A stretch of 64,000 bases of DNA. Origin: Rhodothermales bacterium (GTDB taxonomy: Bacteria; Bacteroidota; Rhodothermia; Rhodothermales; Bin80). A program made the position numbers and the translations under genes. Shown here one piece after another: positions 23,861-62,888 of the stretch. The first letter of the stretch is position 1, and each line of letters begins with the position of its first letter. The DNA is taken from NCBI GenBank assembly GCA_965218495.1, contig OZ244626.1:1353280-1417279 (forward strand), read 5' to 3'. A model generated the notes under the pieces. The model was not told the DNA's origin. It did not search any database and saw only the letters and a list, made by a program, of their open reading frames with translations.

Positions 23861-24136
23861 ATGTTCGTCCGTACCGTCCGACGCAAGACCACCCAGAACG
23901 TTAGCGTACAGATTGTCGAATCGACCCGCGTACCCGGCAAGGGACCGCTGCAGCGGATCGTCAAGCATATGGGCTCTGCCCCTGAAGGGCCGCTGCTGGA
24001 GGCGCTGGTGCGGTTGGCGCACCGGGCGAAGCTGCGGCTCCTGGAAGAGAGACAGCCCTCCTTGTTTCCTATAGATATTATAGAAGGGGCCGGAGAGGGG
24101 GCACAGGCTATTTTGCCTGTGAGGCGCAGGCGCCTG
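23861..24136 (+). pseudogene. IS1634-family transposase, fragment 1 of 3 (N-terminus)
   Basis: MFVRTVRRKTTQNVSVQIVESTRVPGKGPLQRIVKHMGSA...ERQPSLFP is the typical IS1634 N-terminus. In the ORF track it is artificially fused in frame to the IS110 transposase. Confidence 0.65.
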
Positions 24137-24169
24137 GACTTCATCCTTCTCCATAGACCTTACAACCCC

Positions 24170-25312
24170 ATGAACCACACCATAAGTGTCATCCCTTCTC
24201 AGAAGTCGGTCTTCGTCGGGCTGGACGTACATAGAGACACGATCGCGGCGTGCGTATACGATCCGGCTTCGAAGAGGGTCTGTCTTGAAGTGGAGCTGCC
24301 CAGCGACGACAGGGCCAAGCTGCGTAAGCTTATGGCCCGTATTCGTGGTTCCTTTGGCGAACCCCGGTGTTGTTACGAAGCGTCCTCGTGTGGCTACACG
24401 CTCTATAGAACGCTCAGTGACGACGGAGTCGCCTGCGCGGTCATTGCACCTTCGTCGATTCCACGGCGTGCCGGTGATCGAGTCAAGACGGACCGTCGTG
24501 ACGCGGAAAAGTTGGCCCGCTACTACGCGGCGGGCCTACTGACGGCGGTTCACATCCCCGACAAGGCGTTGCTTGCCGCCCGAACGCTGGTGCGCCGCCG
24601 GGTTACTCTGGTCGAAGATTTGACCCGCACCAAGCAACGCTCCGTGCTCTTGTTGCAAAGCCGCGAGCATGTGTACCGGGCGGGCAAGAACTGGACGCAG
24701 AAATTCTGGCGGTGGCTGGAAGGCCTCGCGCTTGACCCCGTTGATGCGTGTACGCTGCAAAGCTTGTTGAACCAATGCCAGATGCTCGAAGCCCAGATCC
24801 GGGAGATAGAGCAACATATCGAAGAAGAGGCACAGAAGGCATGCTATCAGCCCACGGTGCAGGTATTGCAAGCCTTCCGTGGCATCGGGCTGTTTACAGC
24901 GATGCAGCTGACTTGTGAAATCGGTGACATTCGGCGTTTTGCACACCCGAAAGCACTGATGGCATATCTGGGATTGGTGCCCTCGGAGCATTCCTCCGGC
25001 CACCGCACCCGGCACGGCTCGATTACCAAGGCCGGTAACACCCATGCCCGCAAGGCTCTGGTCTCTGCGGCCTGGAAATATACCCACTACCCCCGGCGTA
25101 GCCAGGCGCTGCACCAGCGCCAGCACCACTGCGCTGCGGAAGTGATTACCATCAGCTGGAAGGCTCAGCGGAGACTACACAAACGATACCGCAGCCTGAT
25201 TCAGCGTAAAGCGCCCACGAAAGCCATCGTGGCCCTTGCGCGCGAACTCGTGGGCTTTCTCTGGGAAGCCATGCAGACGGTGCCGCCAACACCGGTGGCC
25301 CTTGCGGCCTAA
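24170..25312 (+). CDS. IS110-family transposase/recombinase (DEDD RuvC-like + Tnp domain)
   Basis: MNHTISVIPSQKSVFVGLDVHRDTIAACVYD... (N-terminal DEDD motif), then ...LQAFRGIGLFTAMQLTCEIGDIRRFAHPKALMAYLGLVPSEHSSG.....GSITKAGNTHARKAL (C-terminal IS110 signature). Confidence 0.85.
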   Translation: MNHTISVIPSQKSVFVGLDVHRDTIAACVYDPASKRVCLEVELPSDDRAKLRKLMARIRGSFGEPRCCYEASSCGYTLYRTLSDDGVACAVIAPSSIPRRAGDRVKTDRRDAEKLARYYAAGLLTAVHIPDKALLAARTLVRRRVTLVEDLTRTKQRSVLLLQSREHVYRAGKNWTQKFWRWLEGLALDPVDACTLQSLLNQCQMLEAQIREIEQHIEEEAQKACYQPTVQVLQAFRGIGLFTAMQLTCEIGDIRRFAHPKALMAYLGLVPSEHSSGHRTRHGSITKAGNTHARKALVSAAWKYTHYPRRSQALHQRQHHCAAEVITISWKAQRRLHKRYRSLIQRKAPTKAIVALARELVGFLWEAMQTVPPTPVALAA

Positions 25313-26605: not shown

Positions 26606-28011
26606 GGCTCTTCCCCTAATCAGATGGGTGCAGTGTTGTATTCAACGGGAAACGAAATGAGGTGATGCGGATTCATACCCGCTTCTTGCCTGTTTCAAGG
26701 CCATCATCACGATGGCGCACACGTTCTCTAACCCCAGCAACGATATGTCACAACTAAAGACTGATATCGGTTGCCTCTTGGGCATCCAGACTCCCTGGAA
26801 GGTTTCCGAGGTGACGTTTGCGCATGAGGCGCAAGAAGTCCGGATTCATGTAGCTTGCGAGGACGGCCATCAGCTGCCTTGTCCGGAGTGCGGCTCGGCG
26901 TCTCCGGGCTACGACCACCGTCGTCGGCAATGGCGACACCTGGATCTGTGCGAGTATCGCACCATGGTGATTGCGGAGCTTCCCCGCGTGGAATGTCCTG
27001 AGCATGGAGTGCGCACCGTGTCGGTTCCGTGGGCGGAACCTATGTCACGGTTCACTGCAGGGTTTGAGGCGCTGGTGATTGATTGGCTGCAGGAGGCGAG
27101 TGTGTCGGCGGTGTCCCGTCTGATGGGGGTGAGCTGGAATGCGATAGACGGGATCATGCAGCGCGCGGTGCAACGCGGCCTTGCGCGGAGGAAGGAACGG
27201 AATGTAGCCCATATTGGCGTGGATGAGACCTCTTTTCGCAAGCGCCATGCGTATGTCACCATTGTTTCGGATGCGAAGGCGGGTACGGTGCTGCATGTGG
27301 GCGAAGACCGTAGGAAAGAAACACTTACGCGTTGGTATGCTGGGCTCACTTTGGAGCAGCTGGAGGGCATCGAGAGTGTCAGCATGGACATGTGGCCGGC
27401 CTACATCAACGCCACGCTGGAGCATGTGCCAGAGGCGCAACGGAAGGTGGCCTTTGACAAATTCCACGTAGTGAAATGTCTGGGAGTTGCCGTGGACAAG
27501 GTTCGGCGCCAAGAGCACCGGGCGTTGATGAAGGAAGGCCTGGAAGACCTCAAGGGAACCAAGTATGATTGGTTGACTCACCCGGCCAACATGTCTGCTA
27601 AGCAGAAGGCGCGCTTCCAGCAGTTGCGTACCAGCACGTTGAAGACGGCCCGCGCGTGGGCTATCAAGGAAATGGCCCTGCAGTTGTGGCATTATGTCCA
27701 CCGCACATGGGCGCGCAAGGGTTGGGAGCGATGGTTGTCGTGGGCCATGCGGTGCCGGCTGGAACCGGTCAAGGCAGCCGCCAGAACCATCAAGACACAC
27801 CTGTGGGGTATCCTCAACGCAATTATCCTGAAGGTGAGCAATGGCCCTGCGGAAGGCATCAACAGCCGGATCAAAACGATCAAAGTGCGCAGTAGGGGCT
27901 TCCGCAACAAACGGCGGTTTGCTAACGCCATTTACTTTCACCTCGGAGGCCTGGATCTTTACCCCGAAAGCGTCCGCAGGTGAGCTTACCCACTAAAAAA
28001 GGAGTAGAGCC
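26606..28011 (+). mobile_element. ISL3-family insertion sequence, copy 1
   Basis: Ends are GGCTCTTCCCC... and ...GGAGTAGAGCC (imperfect IR). There is a perfect 8-bp target duplication, ACATTTTT, at 26598-26605 and 28012-28019. Near-identical to copy 2 at 41405-42812. Confidence 0.85.
26712..27983 (+). CDS. ISL3-family transposase
   Basis: 423 aa: ...CPECGS...HLDLCEYRT...VECPEHGV... (zinc finger), ...HIGVDETSFRKRHAYVTIV.D... and ...SNGPAEGINSRIKTIK.RSRGFRN..., ISL3 hallmarks. Confidence 0.9.
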   Translation: MAHTFSNPSNDMSQLKTDIGCLLGIQTPWKVSEVTFAHEAQEVRIHVACEDGHQLPCPECGSASPGYDHRRRQWRHLDLCEYRTMVIAELPRVECPEHGVRTVSVPWAEPMSRFTAGFEALVIDWLQEASVSAVSRLMGVSWNAIDGIMQRAVQRGLARRKERNVAHIGVDETSFRKRHAYVTIVSDAKAGTVLHVGEDRRKETLTRWYAGLTLEQLEGIESVSMDMWPAYINATLEHVPEAQRKVAFDKFHVVKCLGVAVDKVRRQEHRALMKEGLEDLKGTKYDWLTHPANMSAKQKARFQQLRTSTLKTARAWAIKEMALQLWHYVHRTWARKGWERWLSWAMRCRLEPVKAAARTIKTHLWGILNAIILKVSNGPAEGINSRIKTIKVRSRGFRNKRRFANAIYFHLGGLDLYPESVRR

Positions 28012-28485
28012 ACATTTTTTAGTTGGGTTTCGGCGGCTTCTGCCGAGATGGGCCCTCAAAGTAGATATCTTTTGGCAATAGATGGTGCTACGGGCCGAGT
28101 GTGTGGGTGCAAATGGGACGGTGCAAGCTTATATGGGCCCAAATGCGTGCTCACACGCGGATTTTCGGGCGCAGGCAGGCTCGTGGAGTGACTTCTCGGG
28201 CACGAAATCCCGCAGGAATCCTCTGATTGCACGCGTAAGCGGCGATCTTGGCAGGGTGCAGCGCCTCAGAGCGTCCGGACAGCTGCGGGTTTTGCTTATG
28301 CCAGCGTCAGCAGCGCACTACTGCGCGCGGGCATTGAGCGCCAGGTGTTGCCTTTGCAGTCCTTTGGGGCCGGCAGACCGAATCCCCACTAACCCGGATA
28401 AATCACCAGTGTGCCAAGAATGGGAACCCAAGCCCCACGTAAGTATATGATGTGCAATCAGTTATAACCATCCTTTGCACTGCAA

Positions 28486-29937
28486 ATGAGCAAAACAGAC
28501 TGTCATACTGAAGAGCTTCGTTTCGAGGACTTGGGACGGCGTAAAGTGGTCGGAAAGTTCGACGGCGGCCCTATGTCCTCGGACGCAGGTGCGCTGCTGT
28601 TACGGGAGGCCGACCGGATGTTCGACGTCATAGGCCGCTTTGCCGCCTGCTTCACCGACCACCGTGATCCCAGCAGGGTCGAGCATACCGTGGAGGCGAT
28701 GCTCAGGCAACGTATCTACGCGATATGCTTGGGCTACGAAGACGTGAACGACCATGACCGTCTGCGGGACGATCCCGTGTTGGCCATGGGCGTGGGCTGC
28801 GAAGATGTAACAGGTGCGCACCGGGCACGGGAACGCGACCAGGGACATCCGCTGGCGAGTTCCAGCACACTGAACCGACTGGAGCTCGGCTCCAAAGGAG
28901 GGGCCGCATCGCACAGGTACAAGCGCATCGTAGCGGACCCTGAAAAGATCGACACCATGCTCGCGGACTTGTTCATGGATGTAACGGGCGAGGAGCCAGA
29001 GCATATCGTGTTGGATCTCGATGCTACCGATGACGCGATTCACGGCCAGCAGGAGGGGCGCTTCTTTCATGGTTACTATGGCCACTACTGCTACTTACCG
29101 CTGTACATCGTTAGCGGCAAGCATGTGCTGGCCGCTCGTCTGCGCCCCTCCAACATTGACGCATCAGCGGGCACGATAGAGGAGTTGGCGCCAGTGATAG
29201 CGCGTATCCGTGCGCGGTGGCCGCAGGTGCCCATCTGGATTCGTGCAGATGCAGGATTCTGCCGCGATGATATCATGGCATGGTGCGAAGCACAGGGCCT
29301 GCACTACATCATTGGTATGCCGCTCAATGCGCGGCTGAAACGCATCGTTGAGGAGGCTATGGAGCAGAGTCAGGCCACCTGCGAGGCCAGCGGGCAGCCT
29401 TCGCGGCGCTTCCGCAGCTTCGAGTACCAGACGAAGGACAGCTGGAGCTGTGCTCGGCGCGTGATAGCCAAGGCGGAATGGCTGCCTGGACCGCGCGGCT
29501 ATAACGCGCGATTCGTGGTCACCAATTTCAGCGAAGACGCGTACGACGCGCGCACGCTATACGAAGATTTGTATTGCGCGCGTGGAGACATGGAGAACCG
29601 GCTCAAGGAGCAGCAGCTTACCCTGTTCGCTGACCGCACCTCTACGTCCATGATGGAGAGCAACCAGTTGCGCCTGTACTTCTCTACGGTCGCCAACACC
29701 CTGATGACCATCATCAAGACCGTTGGCTTGCAGGGCACCGCGATGGCGCAGGCGCAGTGCGCTACTATCCGTGTGCGGCTACTGAAGATCGCAGCACTGG
29801 TGGTGGTAAGCGTACGCCGAGTCCGCCTGCTCTTGCCCGAGGCCTATCCCTGGCAGCAACTGTTCGCGCGCGTGCTAAACAACTTGCGTGGCGCTGTGCA
29901 CACCACCCAGGTCGGCGCACGCGCCTCACCTTCATAG
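28486..29937 (+). CDS. IS1380-family transposase
   Basis: 483 aa: ...LDLDATDDAIHGQQEGRFFHGYYGHYCYLPLYI..., ...IRADAGFCRDDIMAWCE... and ...YCARGDMENRLKEQQLTLFADRTSTSMMESNQLRLYFS..., the IS1380 pattern. Confidence 0.8.
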   Translation: MSKTDCHTEELRFEDLGRRKVVGKFDGGPMSSDAGALLLREADRMFDVIGRFAACFTDHRDPSRVEHTVEAMLRQRIYAICLGYEDVNDHDRLRDDPVLAMGVGCEDVTGAHRARERDQGHPLASSSTLNRLELGSKGGAASHRYKRIVADPEKIDTMLADLFMDVTGEEPEHIVLDLDATDDAIHGQQEGRFFHGYYGHYCYLPLYIVSGKHVLAARLRPSNIDASAGTIEELAPVIARIRARWPQVPIWIRADAGFCRDDIMAWCEAQGLHYIIGMPLNARLKRIVEEAMEQSQATCEASGQPSRRFRSFEYQTKDSWSCARRVIAKAEWLPGPRGYNARFVVTNFSEDAYDARTLYEDLYCARGDMENRLKEQQLTLFADRTSTSMMESNQLRLYFSTVANTLMTIIKTVGLQGTAMAQAQCATIRVRLLKIAALVVVSVRRVRLLLPEAYPWQQLFARVLNNLRGAVHTTQVGARASPS

Positions 29938-30164
29938 GCCGTTCCGGATCCAACTTATCCCACAGATTGATAGACGCCACATGGTGGTTGCAGGATACGT
30001 GTATCCAAGAAGCACCGGTGCGCGAACAAAAGCCTTGATTCGCGCTCGAAACATGCCCGAAACAGCGCTTGCAGCCGCCGACTATTCGCTCTGGAAGGCG
30101 GGAATCAGCATTCGCGTTCGCAAACCGTGACCCACTGCCTACAAACGCCCCGAATTATGGCGAT

Positions 30165-31424
30165 TCAAGAGCTTGGTGAGCGATGCGGGCTAACCCATCG
30201 ACCCCCGGAGGTGCTCAGGACCTTGGTCAGCTCCTTCATGTCCTCCCGGCGTATCGGCTTCAGATTCGACTCGTACTGCATGAATATCGCCCCGCACCAG
30301 CGCTGACGCATCCCCGATGATCCCCAGCGCTTCACGTTCCGTGATCGGTTCGCAATAATGCTGTTGAGGTTCTCGATGATGTTCGTCGTCTTCAGACTGT
30401 CTCTGACAGCCTGGTTCCGCACCCCCAACCGGTGAAGTGTCAGCGTATCCTCCAAACCCTCCTCCAGACTGCGTGCGGCCTTCGGACACGATCGCTGCAG
30501 CGCTCCATGCAGCGACACAAGCGCCGCCCGTGCCTCCTTGTACGTGGGTAGCTCCCATGCCGCCTGAAGCCGACGCTTCATTTGCGTGGCCGCTGGCTCG
30601 TTTTTGATGTGACGCGTCACATTGGTACGCTTGTGCCATTGGCAGCGCTGGAACACGACCGCATCCCCAAACACCGCACTGATCCCCTTGCGAAGCCCGC
30701 GGCTGCCGTCCACCTGTACCAACAGCTTGTCGGTATGGGTGAAGCCCCGACGCAACAAATCCTGCAACAGCGACTGCACCTGCGCACTGTTCTCGGTACG
30801 ACTTTCCGCAAAGCCCAGCACGACCTTCTCGCCCTCGGTCGTGATGCCCATCGCTACGATCATCTGCACACCAGCCAAATACTTGCCATCAAGCAGGAGC
30901 ACCGCAAAAGTGTGCTGATCGAAGCGGCGCGTCTCAAATTCCTTCAGTAGCGCTGCCGTCTGCGTAACGAAGGCGTTGCCGACGCTGCTGGCACTCAACC
31001 CCAGACTATCGGTGAAGACTTGGGCCGCCTGCCTGTAATTGCGCCGCGAGAGTCCACACAGCAACCCCCTGGTCACGCTTTCCCGGTCCATAAGCCCACG
31101 CTCGCGCAAGAGGCGGTACGTTTGCAGAGGACGCTCCTTTCGGGTTCGTACATTCCGTACGCGCGGAACGCGGACCGCAATGCGCTCCAAACCGACGCGG
31201 ATGGAACCCGGATTCGTCCTCCAGCGCTGAAAGCCGGTCTTACGGTGCTTCCCACGTGCGCCGCAAATGAAGCGGGCTTCGGCTTCCATGACCCATGTGG
31301 CCATCTTGGTAAGAAGATCATCGAGATATCCAAGGCAGCTGGCCAGGCCGATGAAATTCCTCTGCGCAAGCCCGTGAAGGTCCTCGATGAGTGATTGATC
31401 CAGCATAGGGGTATGGGTCATCAT
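30165..31424 (-). CDS. IS256-family (Mutator-type) transposase, catalytic residues apparently intact
   Basis: 419 aa: ...FAVLLLDGKYLAG..., ...LLVQVDGSRGLRKGISAVFG.AVVFQRCQWHKRTNV... and ...TTNIIENLNS..., the IS256 DDE blocks. Confidence 0.85.
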   Translation of the reverse strand: MMTHTPMLDQSLIEDLHGLAQRNFIGLASCLGYLDDLLTKMATWVMEAEARFICGARGKHRKTGFQRWRTNPGSIRVGLERIAVRVPRVRNVRTRKERPLQTYRLLRERGLMDRESVTRGLLCGLSRRNYRQAAQVFTDSLGLSASSVGNAFVTQTAALLKEFETRRFDQHTFAVLLLDGKYLAGVQMIVAMGITTEGEKVVLGFAESRTENSAQVQSLLQDLLRRGFTHTDKLLVQVDGSRGLRKGISAVFGDAVVFQRCQWHKRTNVTRHIKNEPAATQMKRRLQAAWELPTYKEARAALVSLHGALQRSCPKAARSLEEGLEDTLTLHRLGVRNQAVRDSLKTTNIIENLNSIIANRSRNVKRWGSSGMRQRWCGAIFMQYESNLKPIRREDMKELTKVLSTSGGRWVSPHRSPSS

Positions 31425-41404: not shown

Positions 41405-42812
41405 GGCTCTTCCCCATTTTAGATGGGTACAGCGTTTCATTCAACGGGAAACGATATGAGATGATGCGGATTCATACCCGTTTCTTATCTGTTTCAAGGC
41501 CATCATCACGATGGCGCACACGTTCTCTAACCCCAGCAACGATATGTCACAACTAAAGACTGATGATATAGGTTGCCTCTTGGGCATCCAGGCTCCCTGG
41601 AAGGTTTCCGAGGTGACGTTTGCGCATGAGGCGCAAGAAGTCCGGATTCATGTAGTTTGCGAGGACGGCCATCAGCTGCCTTGTCCGGAGTGCGGCTCGG
41701 CGTCTCCGGGCTACGATCACCGTCGCCGGCAATGGCGACACCTGGACCTGTGCGAGTATCGCACCATGGTGGTTGCGGAGCTTCCCCGCGTGGAATGTCC
41801 GGAGCATGGAGTGCGCAACGTGTCGGTTCCGTGGGCGGAACCTATGTCACGGTTCACTGCAGGGTTTGAGACGCTGGTGATTGATTGGCTGCAGGAGGCG
41901 AGTGTATCGGCGGTGTCCCGTCTGATGGGGGTGAGCTGGAATGCGATAGACGGGATCATGCAGCGCGCGGTGCAACGCGGCCTTGCGCGGAGGAAGGAAC
42001 GGGATGTTGCCCATATTGGCGTGGATGAGACCTCTTTTCGCAAGCGCCACGCGTATGTCACCATTGTTTCGGATGCGAAGGCGGGTACGGTGCTGCATGT
42101 GGGCGAAGACCGTAAGAAAGAAACACTTACGCGTTGGTATGCTGGGCTCACTTTGGAGCAGCTGGAGGGCATCGAGAGTGTCAGCATGGACATGTGGCCG
42201 GCCTACATCAACGCCACGCTGGAGCATGTGCCAGAGGCGCAACGGAAGGTGGCCTTTGACAAATTCCACGTAGTGAAATGTCTGGGAGCTGCCGTGGACA
42301 AGGTTCGGCGCCAAGAGCACCGGGCGTTGATGAAGGAAGGCCTGGAAGACCTCAAGGGAACCAAGTATGATTGGTTGACTCACCCGGCCAACATGTCTGC
42401 TAAGCAGAAGGCGCGCTTCCAGCAGTTGCGTACCAGCACGTTGAAGACGGCCCGCGCGTGGGCTATCAAGGAAATGGCCCTGCAGTTGTGGCATTATGTC
42501 CACCGCACATGGGCGCGCAAGGGTTGGGAGCGATGGTTGTCGTGGGCCATGCGGTGCCGGCTGGAACCGGTCAAGGCAGCCGCCAGAACCATCAAGACAC
42601 ACCTGTGGGGTATCCTCAACGCAATCATCCTGAAGGTGAGCAATGGCCCTGCGGAAGGCATCAACAGCCGGATCAAAACAATCAAAGTGCGCAGTAGGGG
42701 CTTCCGCAACAAACGGCGGTTTGCCAACGCCATTTACTTTCACCTCGGAGGCCTGGATCTATACCCCGCAGCGTCCGCAGGTGAGTTTACCCACTAAAAA
42801 AGGGGTAGAGCC
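41405..42812 (+). mobile_element. ISL3-family insertion sequence, copy 2
   Basis: Same ends as copy 1 (GGCTCTTCCCC... and ...GGGGTAGAGCC). The flanks TGAAAATG / AAAAAATG form an imperfect 8-bp duplication. Confidence 0.8.
41511..42797 (+). CDS. ISL3-family transposase
   Basis: 428 aa, nearly identical to 26712-27983 except for a few substitutions and a different C-terminal tail caused by an indel. Confidence 0.9.
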   Translation: MAHTFSNPSNDMSQLKTDDIGCLLGIQAPWKVSEVTFAHEAQEVRIHVVCEDGHQLPCPECGSASPGYDHRRRQWRHLDLCEYRTMVVAELPRVECPEHGVRNVSVPWAEPMSRFTAGFETLVIDWLQEASVSAVSRLMGVSWNAIDGIMQRAVQRGLARRKERDVAHIGVDETSFRKRHAYVTIVSDAKAGTVLHVGEDRKKETLTRWYAGLTLEQLEGIESVSMDMWPAYINATLEHVPEAQRKVAFDKFHVVKCLGAAVDKVRRQEHRALMKEGLEDLKGTKYDWLTHPANMSAKQKARFQQLRTSTLKTARAWAIKEMALQLWHYVHRTWARKGWERWLSWAMRCRLEPVKAAARTIKTHLWGILNAIILKVSNGPAEGINSRIKTIKVRSRGFRNKRRFANAIYFHLGGLDLYPAASAGEFTH

Positions 42813-57424: not shown

Positions 57425-58321
57425 TTGCGCGCAATCCGCTTTTACGCGCCTATCCTGTTTGCCCTGGTAGCAACAGGTTGCGATTCAGTCGGCAACCAGC
57501 AGCTGGATACGGTCTTCGTCGTGGAGTCCATTTTGGTTGCGGGGCAGCCTTTGCCGCCCTTGCTCTTAAGCAGGGTTGGCGACATTGACGAGAAGTATCT
57601 GTTCGAGGCGCACGCCGAGCCTGGTGCCCAAGTCACGGTACTTGTGACGGGAGCAGTGGCCAACGAAACCGTGCGCTATCAAGAGCTAATAGATGTGCCA
57701 GGCGTATACATTCCGAGGAACTATGACTACCCCGTACTGCCGCTCCACCAGTACGACCTAACGATCCAGCCTGCGACCTCTACGCAGCCCATCACGGCTT
57801 CGACAGTGGTACCCGACACCTTCAGCATTGCGAGTGTCTCGCAGACTGAGGTAATCTATCAGAGCAGCAATCAGCTCCGTTTCCGCATAACACCTAGCCA
57901 CTACCCTGGGCGAGACCAGAGCTACTTCATCTTTGTCACGGAGGCAGTAGACGCATTTGAATCAAACCTCGTGCCGTTTGCGAAGGAGCGGTTCGATGAT
58001 GGAGATGGCGAATCGCTGGAGGAGTTGCGCGTCAACCCATCACCCATCATCAACGAAGACAACTACGAAGTCAATGATGATGGCACGCTAAACCTGCGGT
58101 ATCCGTGGGTTGGCATCAACTTCTTTGGGCCCAACATCGTCCATGTGAATGTGCTGGATGACAACCTGTACAACTTTGAGCGCTCCCGCGCCGTCCAGGA
58201 GGGTGGCTCCACGTTTGCTCCCGGCGAGATTCCCAATCCTCTGCCGCATGTCAATGGCGCCCATGGCCTGTTTGGCAGCCAGGCGCGTGTTTCGGCGCAG
58301 TTTACGGTGATTAGGCCCTAG
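57425..58321 (+). CDS. DUF4249-like lipoprotein (TBDR partner)
   Basis: Lipobox MRAIRFYAPILFALVATGCDS. The size and the position directly after a CarbopepD_reg-TBDR are typical of DUF4249. Confidence 0.5.
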   Translation: MRAIRFYAPILFALVATGCDSVGNQQLDTVFVVESILVAGQPLPPLLLSRVGDIDEKYLFEAHAEPGAQVTVLVTGAVANETVRYQELIDVPGVYIPRNYDYPVLPLHQYDLTIQPATSTQPITASTVVPDTFSIASVSQTEVIYQSSNQLRFRITPSHYPGRDQSYFIFVTEAVDAFESNLVPFAKERFDDGDGESLEELRVNPSPIINEDNYEVNDDGTLNLRYPWVGINFFGPNIVHVNVLDDNLYNFERSRAVQEGGSTFAPGEIPNPLPHVNGAHGLFGSQARVSAQFTVIRP

Positions 58322-58543
58322 CCTGCCTTCCGCAGGCGTCTACACGCACGGAAGTACTGGCCCGTTGAGCCCCGGCAGTGGAGCAACACATGTGTCGTCC
58401 GAATTGCCGGCCGCACATGCACGCTTGCCGACTCGCATGCAGAAAAGGACCACCTACCAAGGCTAGATTGGCCACTCAGCTTCGTTAGCCTTGGGCACTG
58501 CCCTTGCCCATGGGCGCTCGGGTTACTAAGGGACTTGGAGCAA

Positions 58544-58828
58544 TCAGCCAGGCGGTCTACGTTGCCATCGCAAGGGAAAACCGATGCCAACTAGAATCGA
58601 CAACGCACGGCTCCCTCCCTTGCTGTCAATCCTTAACCCACGCTGGTAGAGCGGTGTTAGTCCATAGTTGTACAGGACGTCTAGTGACAGTGACCAAGAA
58701 CGTGACGTTGCTATGTTTATGCCGGCACCTCCTATTATCCCTAAGTCCGTTACCCGTAGCACTCGGACAAGCATGTCGGGACAGTCTATAGAACGCGACT
58801 CGGCGGCTCGTTTCTGCGTGTACTTGGC
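58544..58828 (-). CDS. Beta-barrel OMP, exon 2 (C-terminal strands)
   Basis: ...VTDLGIIGGAGINIATSRSWSLSLDVLYNYGLTPLYQ...SRALSILVGIGFPL... aligns with the C-terminus of the paralogue at 15807-16448. It is in frame with exon 1 once the intron is removed. The boundary could be 58834 if the 3' splice site is 6 nt upstream. Confidence 0.7.
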   Translation of the reverse strand, partial: AKYTQKRAAESRSIDCPDMLVRVLRVTDLGIIGGAGINIATSRSWSLSLDVLYNYGLTPLYQRGLRIDSKGGSRALSILVGIGFPLRWQRRPPG

Positions 58829-59102
58829 ATCGCGGTAGCCCCCGGATTTCCCGGGGGCCCCGCACAGATCCGGACGTGCGCGTTAACGCATCCGGCTCCT
58901 CCCTTGGGTCGCGCCGTCGCGCATGACGTTAGCAGGTCGGCAAACCGACCCGCAGCCGTAACCGATCCGTCCCCTGTGACACGCAGTATCCGACGCTGTG
59001 TCCGGTACGTGTGAAACTTCACGATTTCCCCTTGGGTGCGACGCTTCGCTCCACTGACTCCGCCACGAGGGCACCCCCGCTTTGTTCGCCGGCTTCATAG
59101 CT

Positions 59103-60648
59103 GTCGGGTCGGAGGAGGCGCCCCGTAGGGCTAACCTCCGTCCGCCGCTCAAACGGCCCGTACGGTTTTCACACCGGTAGCCCCCGGGTTTCCCCAGGGG
59201 CCCCGGACAGATCCGGACGTGCGCGCTAACGCATCCGGCTCCTCCCTTGGGTCGCGCTGTCGCGCATGACGTTAGCAAGTCGGCAAGCCGACCCGCAGCC
59301 GTAACCGATCCACCCCATGGGGCACGCAAAATCCGGCTCAGCGTCCGGTACGTGCAGGGCTTCGCGGTTTCCCCTTGGGTGCGACGCTTTGCTCCACTAG
59401 CTCCGCCACGTGGGCACCCACGCTTTGTTCGCCGGCTTCATAGCTCTTATCATCGCATCTGACTTCTCCCTGCCGTGCATCCTCCGCTCGGCTTTCGCCT
59501 TGACTTTGGCGGCCCCGCCCGAAGCGCTGGGCAGCAAGGAGACCTCTCAGGTCCCGACACAGTACGTACGTGCGTCCCTGGGTTCTCGGACACCGCGGGA
59601 CTCCGCTCCTCCTCACCATAGCGGTGGAGCAGATGTTGCCTTCGACCATACGGAAAGTCTCGGCATCCCGGACAATAGCTTTTTCGGTGCTCATTAGCCC
59701 TGGCCACACGTGCCGCTACCGACGCTTCGCTGTCACCCTCACGAGGGACAACGCACGGCTCGCGGAGACATGCAGTTGGTTAAACTTTCATGACACGGGA
59801 CTTTCACCCGCTGTACTGCGTCAGTTAGCCTGACGCACCCGTAAGCCGCTTTCACAAAGGTGTCTCGTGGAGGGTTCAAGGAAGGTTTCAGTGGAATCAA
59901 TCGTACATGGCCGTACTCCACTGTGGTGTAGACCTTCCTCTCCCCTGTTGGATTGTGCCCAATGCGACAGTTTCCTCAGCCGATGATGTACGGGTCTTTC
60001 ACTAAAGGAACTGTTCCACCTCATCGACTTTACTCGCTGATCGCAATCTCTCCATTCCAAACCACCTTTGCCGACTGCCTTCCCCGACCCACCCGGCCGC
60101 CACTTGCGCGGTCACCCGACTTTCGACGGGCTTGTGGTACTATGCAGCCGTCCGACGACTCGCCACGCATCCGTTCCCACTTCCCCTTACGGGTTATAGG
60201 GGCTGTTATCCCGGTGCCACCCGGGAACGTGACGAGCCCTCCTGGGGTCACACACAGATCTTCCGTACCGTGCCGTTCGCACACACCTTGGTTCGACGGG
60301 TGGATAAGAACGCCTTCGCCGAAATACAGCCGGCTCGACCTTGCCCCGTCTTTGGCCGACCGATTCGTCCGTGGGGTCGCCCCCTTGACTACGGCCCGGT
60401 ACTGCTCCTCAAGCCCTTCAGATTCCACCTCGCGGTGGACACCCTGCCCTCCGGTTGTCTCGCGACAATGTCCCGACTTAGCGCCTGTCTTGGCTGTTTC
60501 CGTCGTTTCCAACTCGGTGCCCGTTTAGACCTTTGCTTATCGGTACATCCCGGCCGACGAGGCATTACCCCCGTCTTTGGATATGGCACCCCCTATCCGG
60601 GCGCCAGTGGGATTTGAACCCACCTGATCTGGGCGCTGCCCAGCACAC
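59103..60648 (-). mobile_element. Group II intron C (middle; ORF-less; 878 nt of its own sequence), nested in intron B
   Basis: The 5' end reads GTGTGCTGGGCAGCGCCCAGATCAGGTGGGTTCAAATCCCAC. It contains ..GGTGGAATCTGAAGG... The internal UGUAU (60324-60328) is complementary to the flanking ..AUACA. The 3' end is ..CCUCCGACCCGAC, with an unpaired A 7 nt from the end. Its removal makes B exactly colinear with A. Confidence 0.75.
59171..59838 (-). mobile_element. Group II intron A (innermost; ORF-less; 668 nt), nested in domain V of intron C
   Basis: The 5' end reads GTGCGTCAGGCTAACTGACGC...AGCGGGTGAAAGTCCCGTG. Domain V lies at 59210-59241. It is homologous to B along its full length, with compensatory changes. 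The internal CCGUA (59649-59653) is complementary to the flanking ..UACGG. Confidence 0.8.
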
Positions 60649-61042
60649 TGTATCGTCGCATCTGACTTCTCTCCACCGTACGTCCTCCGATCAGCATTTA
60701 GCCTACGCTTTGGCGACCTTCCCCAAAGGGATAGGTAGTGGAGAGACCTCCCAGGTCCCGACAGGATACTTGCGTGCGTCCATGGGGTCTCGGACACCGT
60801 GGGCCTGTCCGCCCTCTCACCATAGCGAGGACGAACATGTTGCCTTCGGCATAGAGGAAAACCTCGGCGACCCAGATAATGTCTCTTTCGGTGCTCAATG
60901 TCCCTGGCCACACGTACCGCTACCGACGCTTCGCGCCCACCCTCACGGATGACCACGCACGGCTCGCGGAGATATGTACCTGGTTTAAGCTTCATAACAC
61001 GGGACTTTCACCCGCTATATCCTGCCAGTTAGCCTGGCGCAC

Positions 61043-61519
61043 CCTCTCGGTGACTCCGCAGTTGACTCTAAAGGAGAGTGCCGGACCGATAGTGACATGA
61101 GGCGATAGCTTACCCTTCACGTCACGGCTTAGCGTAAGTAGCAGGGGTAATTCGACATAGTCGAATTCTTGTACAACCTTGATTTCGGAAAAGGGATAAC
61201 CGGAAAGACCCAAATCTGGAAAAACCTGTCGAAAAACCTGGCCCCTTTGCGCATAAGCTGCGCCGAATTGCAATCCAATATTGGGCGCAAGGTGCATGAT
61301 AGCCGATACCCCAACTTTGTACCCAGTTCGATTGCCAACGCCAATCTCTGGCACGCCCTCTGGCAGGCTGGAAGGATTCCATTCGAGGGTCGAGTGTGTG
61401 GTGCCAGCATGAACCAAAACGGTCAACTGCCCTTGCGCACTGTTTGGCAAAGGTAGGCCGACAAACACAAGCAGGAGAAGCAGACGAAGCTTGCGGGCAA
61501 ACCTTGGTGCACTATGCAT
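61043..61519 (-). CDS. Beta-barrel OMP, exon 1 (signal peptide + N-terminal strands)
   Basis: MHSAPRFARKLRLLLLLVFVGLPLPNSAQGQLTVLVHAG...YVELPLLLTLS...VTIGPALSFRVNCGVTER|. The 310-aa track ORF (60992-61924) is an artefact: it extends upstream into the TnpB 3' region and downstream 16 codons into the intron. Confidence 0.7.
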
Positions 61520-61652: not shown

Positions 61653-62888
61653 TTACCAAGAACAGTTGAGCACCCTATGCGATTCTGCGCCGTGAGGAAG
61701 CATCGGCATAGGCCCTGCAGCATCCTTGTCCAAAGGCTTTCCGTGGGCGGTTGGCTCCGGTTCCGCGCGACACGCAGGCAACAGTCGCTGCCAGCCCAAG
61801 ACCGCAAGACCCTTTGCACGAATGCTCTTAGCCGCATTGGCATCCCGGTCCTCGGCATGACGGCAGCATGCGCAGCGATAGGTGCGCACCGACAAGACGA
61901 TAGATTCTGCAGGACGTGCGCCACACAGCCTGCACGTCTGCGTCGTGTGACGTGGCGATACTTTCACGAGCTTGCCTCCAGCGCTCTCAGCCTTGTAGGC
62001 AAGCTGCGTACTGATTTGCCCCAGCGACTGTGCCAGCATCGCGCGGTTCAGACCACGCTTCCTGGAGCCACCACGGGCCGTCAGGTCCTCGAGCTTCAGG
62101 TCCTGTAGCACGAGAATACCATCATGGTCCCTAATAATCGCCGTGGTTATGCGGTTTGTGGCGCTAGTGCGTTTCACCGCAATTCGTCGGCCCTCGCGTG
62201 TCAGCGCTTGTTTCTTTTTGCGCCGCGCATTGCTGCGACGTTTCGCGCGCGACAAGCGCTTCCGCGCACGCTTGTGCTTTGCGTCATCAATCTAGTGGCG
62301 CATACTGCGCGCCGTCAGACAGCGTGCATGCAGCCTTCACGCCAAGGTCTATGCCGATGGGACTGCGCAGATCCGGTTGCAGCGCGGCATCTGTAGTTCC
62401 ATGACGAGTTGTACTTCACAGCCCGTGCCGAGCGGAGTCTGCGCGAGGCATACCTGTCGGGCAGCGCCGCCAGCTGCCAGCGCTCCGCGCACGTCTTTGA
62501 GGCGCAGCTTTCCCACGCCTTTGACTTGGATTGTTCAGTACTGTCCGTTGCGCTTTGGCTTCGTCGCGCCCGATTCGCAGGAGCGAACGCGCCCAAAGCG
62601 CGGCAGCCCCTTGCGATCGAGAATGAACTTCTGGCAGCCCAGCTGCACGCGTTTAAGCGCGCTACGTTGAAACGCTACGCCTCATCGCGTATTGCATCTG
62701 TCAAGGCTGCGCAGCTCCGCCATTCACTTGTACAGGTCGAAGGCGGAGGGCGTAGTTCTATCGGCCGCATATTGATCGCGGCACCGCTGCACGGCTCTAT
62801 TGCGCAGCCATGTCATATGGCGAAACATTGCTTCCAGCCGGTGGCGTTGTGGCTTTCGGATGCGCGCCAAGCGATATGCATAAGGTAT
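61653..62888 (-). pseudogene. tnpB: TnpB (IS200/IS605-family OrfB) relic with stops and frameshifts
   Basis: The C-terminal 200 codons are intact: ...GILVLQDLKLEDLTARGG....GLNRAMLAQSLGQISTQLAYKAESAGGKLVKVSPRHTTQTCRLCG...RTYRCACCRHAEDRDANAAKSI (RuvC + Zn finger). Upstream, my own translation gives IPYAYRLARIRKPQRHRLEAMFRHMTWLRNRAVQ..., interrupted by at least 4 stops or frame changes. Confidence 0.75.

Follow-up and report, generated by a model that had tools for sequence, protein, structure and literature searches.

Several systems described previously resemble the nested introns that we report here, from a 64,000-nucleotide (nt) stretch of the Rhodothermales bacterium contig OZ244626.1 (assembly GCA_965218495.1, positions 1,353,280 to 1,417,279; this whole stretch is referred to below as the window). 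The founding twintron is that of the chloroplast psbF gene of Euglena gracilis (Copertino and Hallick, 1991), in which, as that case is summarised in PMC8393795, the inner intron lies in domain V of its host, and Euglena twintrons generally show sequential removal with the inner intron first (PMC3534033, PMC7049729). The Euglena complex twintrons of Drager and Hallick (1993), composed of organellar group II/III mini-introns, hold more than two introns per composite, excised individually, according to the title cited in PMC8393795. In our window, three group II introns are nested on the minus strand inside a single gene for an outer membrane protein (OMP) beta-barrel, such that intron B holds intron C, and intron C holds intron A. 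Like the psbF twintron, this locus has an inner intron in the domain V of its host; unlike psbF, which is a two-level twintron of a chloroplast, with Euglena introns being degenerate, it is bacterial, has three levels, is built from full-size ribozymes of two families, and contains a second interruption, in a putative domain III.

For Methanosarcina acetivorans, Dai and Zimmerly (2003) reportedly described, in their title, homing into intron open reading frames (ORFs). As reviewed in PMC4424553, M. acetivorans resembles our locus in that its group II introns have repeatedly homed, at specific sites, into others of their kind; as many as five are nested, and ORF-less and ORF-containing copies coexist. 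That nest is archaeal and its flanking exons are without coding ORFs, whereas here the host is an OMP gene and domains V and III are cut. A further parallel is provided by the twintrons of Thermosynechococcus elongatus (Mohr et al., 2010), where splicing and mobility rely on intron-encoded proteins (IEPs) acting in trans and where ORF-less introns insert by homing at a conserved site in domain IV of other introns; that site lies between two IEP ORF start codons, so that, unlike here, the ribozyme core is unbroken (PMC2882425). The twintron of Trichodesmium erythraeum (Pfreundt and Hess, 2015) is, like ours, a bacterial group II twintron within a protein-coding gene, was shown to splice sequentially in vivo, and was called the sole such bacterial case known in 2015; it has two levels, with the inner intron in domain I and IEP ORFs in both introns (PMC4649490), compared to three ORF-less introns with domains V and III interrupted in the present locus. 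Bacterial twintrons within protein-coding genes are very rare, and in the literature we found no report of a bacterial twintron whose inner introns cut ribozyme core domains, nor of three levels in a bacterial coding gene. The locus combines a bacterial host, a coding gene, three levels, core-domain interruptions and introns that are all ORF-less, and adds no new principle.

The nested introns and their host gene

The locus is composed of the following parts, all on the minus strand.

61043..61519, minus: host exon 1, encoding the signal peptide and N-terminal 159 amino acids (aa) of the OMP beta-barrel; the ORF starts at 61519 and is broken after codon 159
61042-58829, minus: intron B entire, 2214 nt including C and A, with 5′ end GUGCG and 3′ end CUACCGCGAU
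60649..61042, minus: intron B, 5′ segment (GUGCG, domains I and II, an AGA linker, and the 5′ strand and loop of the putative domain III basal stem)
60648-59103, minus: intron C entire, inside B
59839..60648, minus: intron C, 5′ segment (GUGUG, domains I-IV without ORF, and the 5′ strand of domain V)
59171..59838, minus: intron A, the innermost, a complete ORF-less group II intron of 668 nt with RF02005 and RF00029 matches
59103..59170, minus: intron C, 3′ segment (loop and 3′ strand of domain V, and domain VI with its branch A)
58829..59102, minus: intron B, 3′ segment (remainder of the putative domain III, ORF-less domain IV, and domains V and VI)
58544..58828, minus: host exon 2 with its stop codon; removal of B brings it into frame with exon 1 (the ORF list has 58544-58774)
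59210-59241, minus: domain V of A
59171-59206, minus: domain VI of A
58867-58898, minus: domain V of B
58829-58863, minus: domain VI of B

Excision of 61042-58829 fuses the two exons in frame and gives an uninterrupted ORF of 253 aa, and the match of this ORF to the Pfam family PF13568 (OMP_b-brl_2; residues 32-220, E = 2.5e-14) spans the exon junction at residue 159/160. Precise removal of the inner intron, the property that defines a twintron, restores the outer intron both for C in B and for A in C. The coordinates in a preliminary description of the locus, which was made from the letters of the DNA alone, all hold, and the three-level nest of group II introns that it proposed is borne out by uninterrupted homologues, by structure-aware searches, and by pairing between exon-binding site 1 (EBS1) and intron-binding site 1 (IBS1) at 3 of 3 sites. 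From its sequence and predicted structure, we therefore read this locus as a three-level group II twintron within a protein-coding gene of a bacterium, probably spliced from the inside out.

Introns A and B are closely related ribozymes. When C (59103-60648) is deleted from B, exactly 668 nt remain, confirming the exact match in length to A that had been claimed, and the two introns share 81% identity overall. Across the C site, GAUGCGACGAUACA and AGCUAUGAAGCC, which meet in B once C is removed, align without gaps to GAUGCGAUGAUAAGAGCUAUGAAGCC in A, and the position of the C-in-B junction is unambiguous. The 5′ segment of B aligns to positions 1-394 of A and its 3′ segment to positions 395-668, the latter with 88.6% identity. 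A consensus fold of A and B contains 215 pairs, and because 25 of these have been kept through two-sided (compensatory) changes, both lineages have evolved under structural constraint. In addition, a search of the whole 64-kb window with Rfam at gathering thresholds returned two matches only, both to RF02005 (group-II-D1D4-6; gathering score 49), one on A (59581-59804, 173.3 bits) and one on B (60785-61008, 164.1 bits). A relaxed search with the domain V-VI model RF00029 (gathering score 40) placed these domains at 59171-59243 in A (32.6 bits, E = 9e-4) and at 58829-58900 in B (38.1 bits, E = 4e-5), and inspection by eye showed the hairpin, the AGC, the bulge and the branch A to be present in domain V and its surroundings in both introns. 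The A/B-type domain V is a 32-nt variant, in which an A faces the G of the AGC triad and the loop reads UAGC or UAAC in place of GNRA; this variant is conserved family-wide, with helix covariation among relatives in L004, L005, L019, L030 and L070. GUGCG is the 5′ end of both A and B, and the 3′ ends of B and of the A/B-type relatives recovered read ...CCGCGAU or ...CCGUGAC, with one less certain case, of unclear boundary, reading ...CCGCGUC.

Insertion sites of introns A and C

Domain V is the catalytic centre of group II introns, and its terminal loop makes the zeta-zeta′ contact. This domain of intron C is divided by intron A into two parts.

59839..59851, minus: 5′ half of domain V of C, AAGCGGCUUACGG; its nucleotides 59839-59843 (UACGG) double as the IBS1 of A
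59151..59170, minus: loop and 3′ half of domain V of C, GAAAACCGUACGGGCCGUUU

Deleting 59171-59838 joins AAGCGGCUUACGG (59851-59839) to GAAAACCGUACGGGCCGUUU (59170-59151) and generates a 33-nt domain V that has the AGC triad, one G.U pair, a bulge of 2 nt and the loop GAAAA; it is followed by a domain VI whose bulged A is located 7 nt from the 3′ end. For the 85-nt segment of domains V and VI formed in this way, the predicted fold has -49.1 kcal/mol (z = -5.0), and 0 of 200 shuffled sequences were as stable. The insertion point lies between the 5′ strand of the upper helix and the terminal loop, i.e., A sits at the 5′ edge of that loop, consistent with the terminal-loop position given for it in the preliminary description. 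The A/C junction has a 1-nt ambiguity (G), and the GUGCG 5′ end of A is obtained only in the register used here.

An exact search of public genomes with the joined 30-mer identified it, uninterrupted, at 34 loci in metagenome-assembled genomes (MAGs) labelled Alphaproteobacteria, Paracoccaceae, Gammaproteobacteria, Gemmatimonadales, Rhodothermales, Entotheonella and Tectimicrobiota. A 19-mer from the 5′ half of domain V only, i.e., a probe able to reveal intact as well as interrupted copies, identified in metagenomes 36 further intact copies, 0 interrupted copies, and one chance match (L036), which we rejected as a C-type copy since it has no other homology to C. As the rebuilt domain V is found uninterrupted in 34 genome and 36 metagenome loci, it is not a product of chance, and the claim that removal of A rebuilds this hairpin is supported both by these 70 relatives and by the stable fold. 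For example, the C copy in L013 (Rhodothermales MAG OZ253559.1) is 98.5% identical to C over C positions 1-853 and is contiguous across the A insertion point. The junction patterns of the nest are GTGAAAGCGGCTTACGGGTGCG and CCGGTGTGAAAACCGTACGGG, and the exact A/C junction GTGAAAGCGGCTTACGGGTGCG gave 0 matches in the JGI metagenomes. Natural variants of the C-type domain V (CCGU to CUGU, GGGCC to GAGCC) preserve pairing, and in the C-type domain V alignment 99.4% of cells are paired, compared to 42-50% in slid-partner controls.

At E <= 0.01, RF00029 failed to recognise the C-type domain V variant even where it is intact, in the eight C-type loci that were searched. We therefore built a custom covariance model, R1, from 24 distinct C-type domain V-VI sequences. 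Intact C-type copies score 111-115 bits with R1, and its best match in the window (filters off) is at 59103-59187 with 66.8 bits, where it matches only 3′ of the A junction, the 5′-strand positions being occupied by the terminal nucleotides of A and marked as non-pairs. The preliminary description had raised the placement of C's domain V elsewhere as the outcome that would speak against it; an R1 search of the body of C (59839-60648) for an alternative domain V gave nothing above 3.3 bits, and from the distance between this value and the scores of intact copies we conclude that C has no other domain V.

The 5′ segment of C is 81-84% identical to most full-length C-type introns and 76-77% identical to two diverged copies, and when C is compared to a consensus fold of 25 relatives, 245 of 261 pairs are kept, 16 of these by compensatory change. 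A relaxed search with the domain I model RF02001 (gathering score 32) matched C with 23.9 bits (E = 0.06). The 5′ hairpin of domain I of C (GGUGGGUUCAAAUCCCACU, ~60600-60625, minus strand) is T-arm-like and conserved across C-type copies, and this likeness explains weak Rfam matches to mascRNA and ycf2. A plasmid search with C identified only truncated relatives of ~75% identity (Cupriavidus, Paraburkholderia, Bradyrhizobium), with uninformative annotation.

Full-length C-type relatives are ~2025 nt long and encode, between C positions 721 and 731 (domain IV), a 390-aa ORF with RVT_1 and GIIM domains, and C appears to retain the last codons of this ORF, in the following feature.

59871..59918, minus: putative remnant of the C-terminal codons of the C-type reverse transcriptase (RT)/maturase ORF, from tblastn with the L002 RT

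This match is weak (12 of 15 residues, E = 0.13) and is supportive only. Given the RT/maturase ORFs of its full-length relatives, C is an ORF-deleted derivative of a genuine retroelement. An extra 1.7 kb in the C-type copy of L019, considered as a further nested intron, was rejected: it is a 518-aa transposase gene on the opposite strand (L019:2936-4492) that interrupts the RT ORF of this full-length C-type intron.

The insertion site of C in B is adjacent to a stem that we assign to domain III.

60649..60660, minus: 5′ strand UGCGACG of the putative domain III basal stem of B, with loop AUACA, directly 5′ of C; the partner strand CGUCGCA is at 59037-59043

C lies 5 nt above this 7-bp stem (UGCGACG/CGUCGCA), which covaries across many host introns of several classes (CUCGGCC/GGCCGAG, UUCGCCC/GGGCGGA, CGGGGCC/GGCCUCG, CCACCUC/GGGGUGG and others). 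We infer that the basal internal loop disrupted by C belongs to domain III of B, because the site follows the second large domain and the AGA linker and directly precedes what is, in full-length relatives, the ORF-bearing domain IV; for the same reasons, we rejected a location in domain II.

Most of the 70 C-type copies (L001-L034, L037-L072), found in MAGs labelled Alphaproteobacteria, Gammaproteobacteria, Gemmatimonadales, Rhodothermales, Entotheonella and Tectimicrobiota, occupy this same domain III loop of other group II introns. Their target motif is ...CAUAGU before the insertion point followed by A(G/C)C after it (i.e., AGC or ACC...), and their host introns belong to at least two classes, RF02005-type and, in L013, RF01999-type. 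Since most copies share this loop, the C-in-B level represents the normal lifestyle of the C-type family, a specialist for this loop in the domain III of other group II introns, and only the A-in-C level is, so far, unique. Two further observations concern this family. The domain III of the C-type intron itself carries GCAUAGU followed by ACC (C positions ~505-515). The RF01999-type intron of L013 hosts, at L013:518-3194, the ORF-less C copy noted above, with domain V intact and with domain VI disrupted by an IS4-like (DDE_Tnp_1_4) element sharing 92% identity with window positions 28389-30195.

Exon recognition, splicing order and rival explanations

In both intron families, one hairpin loop of domain I shows complementarity to the final 5-7 nt of the 5′ flank, loop and flank covary, and we assign this loop as EBS1. 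In the three introns of the nest, it is located as follows.

59649..59653, minus: EBS1 of A, CCGUA, in the loop UUUCCGUAUGG; pairs with the 5′ flank UACGG (59839-59843)
60853..60857, minus: EBS1 of B, CCUCU; pairs with the host-exon IBS1 AGAGG (61043-61047)
60323..60328, minus: EBS1 of C, UGUAUU; pairs with the IBS1 GAUACA (60649-60654) in the putative domain III of B

Among the A/B-type introns, this loop and the 5′ flank covary in 7 family members, with EBS1/IBS1 pairs in relatives of CAGAU/GUCUG, CAAGUG/CACUUG, ACCAGUG/CAUUGGU, UUAACG/CGUUGA and GUCAUC/GGUGAC. For the C-type introns, the pair is ACUAUG/CAUAGU in most copies, ACCAUG/CAUGGU in L004, and AUUAU/GUAAU in L015 and L027. In C's domain V, the upper helix has as its 5′ strand the very sequence that serves A as IBS1. 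Each of the three insertions has the appearance of a retrohoming event.

Based on these assignments, we propose that an ORF-deleted C, from a family distinct from that of A and B, would have retrohomed into the basal internal loop of the domain III of B, and that A, a paralogue of B with a retargeted EBS1, would have retrohomed into the domain V of C. In the primary transcript, A would be the only complete ribozyme. Because transcription reaches the 5′ strand of C's domain V ahead of A and the 3′ strand only afterwards, the EBS1 of A could capture UACGG first; CCGUA would pair with this sequence, and the splicing of A would ligate the two halves of domain V, such that C gains its catalytic hairpin. 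C would then pair UGUAUU with GAUACA and splice, restoring the domain III of B, and B would in turn pair CCUCU with AGAGG and splice, restoring the 253-aa OMP reading frame. Any protein help for these steps would come from RTs/maturases of both families encoded elsewhere in the genome. Reviews note that the inner intron of a twintron must often splice first (PMC4424553), and sequential twintron splicing has been reported (PMC4424553, PMC4649490, PMC8393795). The preliminary description raised an obligatory order of A, then C, then B as a possibility. For A before C, such an order is likely here, because the catalytic domain V is split and the IBS1 of A is the 5′ strand of its upper helix. The order of C before B is plausible and less certain, since C interrupts an internal loop of domain III, which acts as an effector and is not the catalytic centre. 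That the locus is a working three-step cascade of ribozyme repair, served by maturases in trans, in which strictly ordered splicing gates OMP production and which also records a reciprocal parasitism of two intron families, is a proposal that we make tentatively, as a possible outcome and not the expected one.

Several observations weigh against a functional nest as described above. The domain V-VI scores of A and B fall slightly under the RF00029 gathering score, the domain I match of C is weak and under that of RF02001, and the call of domain III in B is based on position and covariation rather than on a curated model. The 3′ end of A reads ...CCGGUGU (59171-59180), with the penultimate A of the usual AY terminus replaced by G. 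Variation in the domain V of C is one-sided, with no double compensatory changes, partly because the exact domain V probe fixed one strand. In addition, 16 consensus pairs are broken in C, though many of these lie around domain IV, where the ORF was deleted. A search for EBS2 in the A/B-type family gave no assignment: some relatives have a candidate loop around intron position 141-160, and no convincing pairing was found for A or B. Finally, there is no IEP, i.e., no RT/maturase ORF, in any of the three introns and no RT gene within the 64-kb window, where tblastn with the RTs of both families recovered only the 15-aa remnant in C. Splicing in vivo would consequently need maturases supplied in trans, a situation with precedent in T. 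elongatus, where ORF-less introns are spliced by a trans-encoded IEP (PMC2882425).

Some of these same features would be expected of a fossil, or "zombie", twintron, i.e., a real nest in which at least one ribozyme no longer splices and the OMP gene is a pseudogene in a region rich in insertion sequences (IS). The three introns are ORF-less with no RT in the window, the GU 3′ end of A departs from the family AY, the region is rich in transposases, the A-in-domain-V junction was not found again in the JGI metagenomes, and non-splicing inner introns are documented in plant mitochondria (PMC7049729). We nevertheless consider such decay unlikely, as the exons still give an intact 253-aa ORF with a continuous Pfam domain, EBS1-IBS1 pairings are intact at all three sites, compensatory changes are seen both between A and B (25) and in C (16), and none of the catalytic triads, bulges or branch adenosines is missing. 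An assembly artefact or chimera, in which repeated intron copies were misjoined, is most improbable. A short-read contig in ENA that carries the neighbouring gene stops ~150 bp before the locus, indicating a region that is hard to assemble, but both inner insertions are base-precise (the 668 nt of B are restored, and the domain V of C is restored as in 70 relatives), and each is flanked by sequence complementary to the EBS1 of the inserted intron itself. Misassembly between 81%-identical repeats would not yield base-precise junctions with matching EBS1, and is therefore very unlikely.

The remaining alternative accepts that the introns splice and disputes the order: the outer introns might splice while carrying the inner ones as loop extensions, so that no order is obligatory. 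For the nest as a whole we regard this as clearly improbable, although its two levels differ, tolerance being possible for domain III and unlikely for domain V. C is situated in an internal loop above an intact 7-bp basal stem, and some introns accept large peripheral inserts, e.g., a 536-nt domain II (PMC4649490). A is located at the edge of a terminal loop, such that both domain V helices could in principle form around it, and "zombie" twintrons are known to splice as one unit (PMC7049729, PMC8393795). However, at this level a structured insert of 668 nt replaces the terminal loop of the catalytic centre, the IBS1 of A competes for the 5′ strand of the upper helix, and the founding psbF twintron, as summarised in PMC8393795, also has its inner intron in domain V.

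Genomic setting and significance

The window contains a dense cluster of transposase genes at 23861-25312, 26712-27983, 28486-29937, 30165-31424 and 41511-42797, and the families represented are IS110, ISL3 (two copies), IS4-like DDE_Tnp_1_4 and Mutator. Directly upstream of the OMP gene is a truncated TnpB/Cas12f-like ORF (61653-62255, minus strand), recognised by a Cas12f1-like_TNB domain and a weak OrfB_IS605 match. Just downstream of the OMP gene, at 58255-58355 (minus strand), Rfam gives an RT-19 RNA match of 24 bits (gathering score 78, E = 0.11) that is probably due to chance.

If the three-level twintron functions as proposed, each splicing event would restore the next ribozyme in a core domain, first domain V and then domain III. 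The locus offers a compact natural substrate of 2.2 kb, containing three ORF-less ribozymes of two families, that could be used to study whether RNA architecture enforces the order of splicing and how ORF-less introns recruit maturases in trans. In the proposed cascade, the relationship between the two families would be one of reciprocal parasitism, with C-type introns homing into the domain III of A/B-type and other introns, and with an A/B-type intron having retargeted its EBS1 to the domain V of a C-type intron. We consider the homing of C-type introns into domain III across phyla to be the most interesting by-product of our analysis, and this pattern suggests that becoming "introns of introns" is an under-appreciated route by which these elements spread while sparing host genes.

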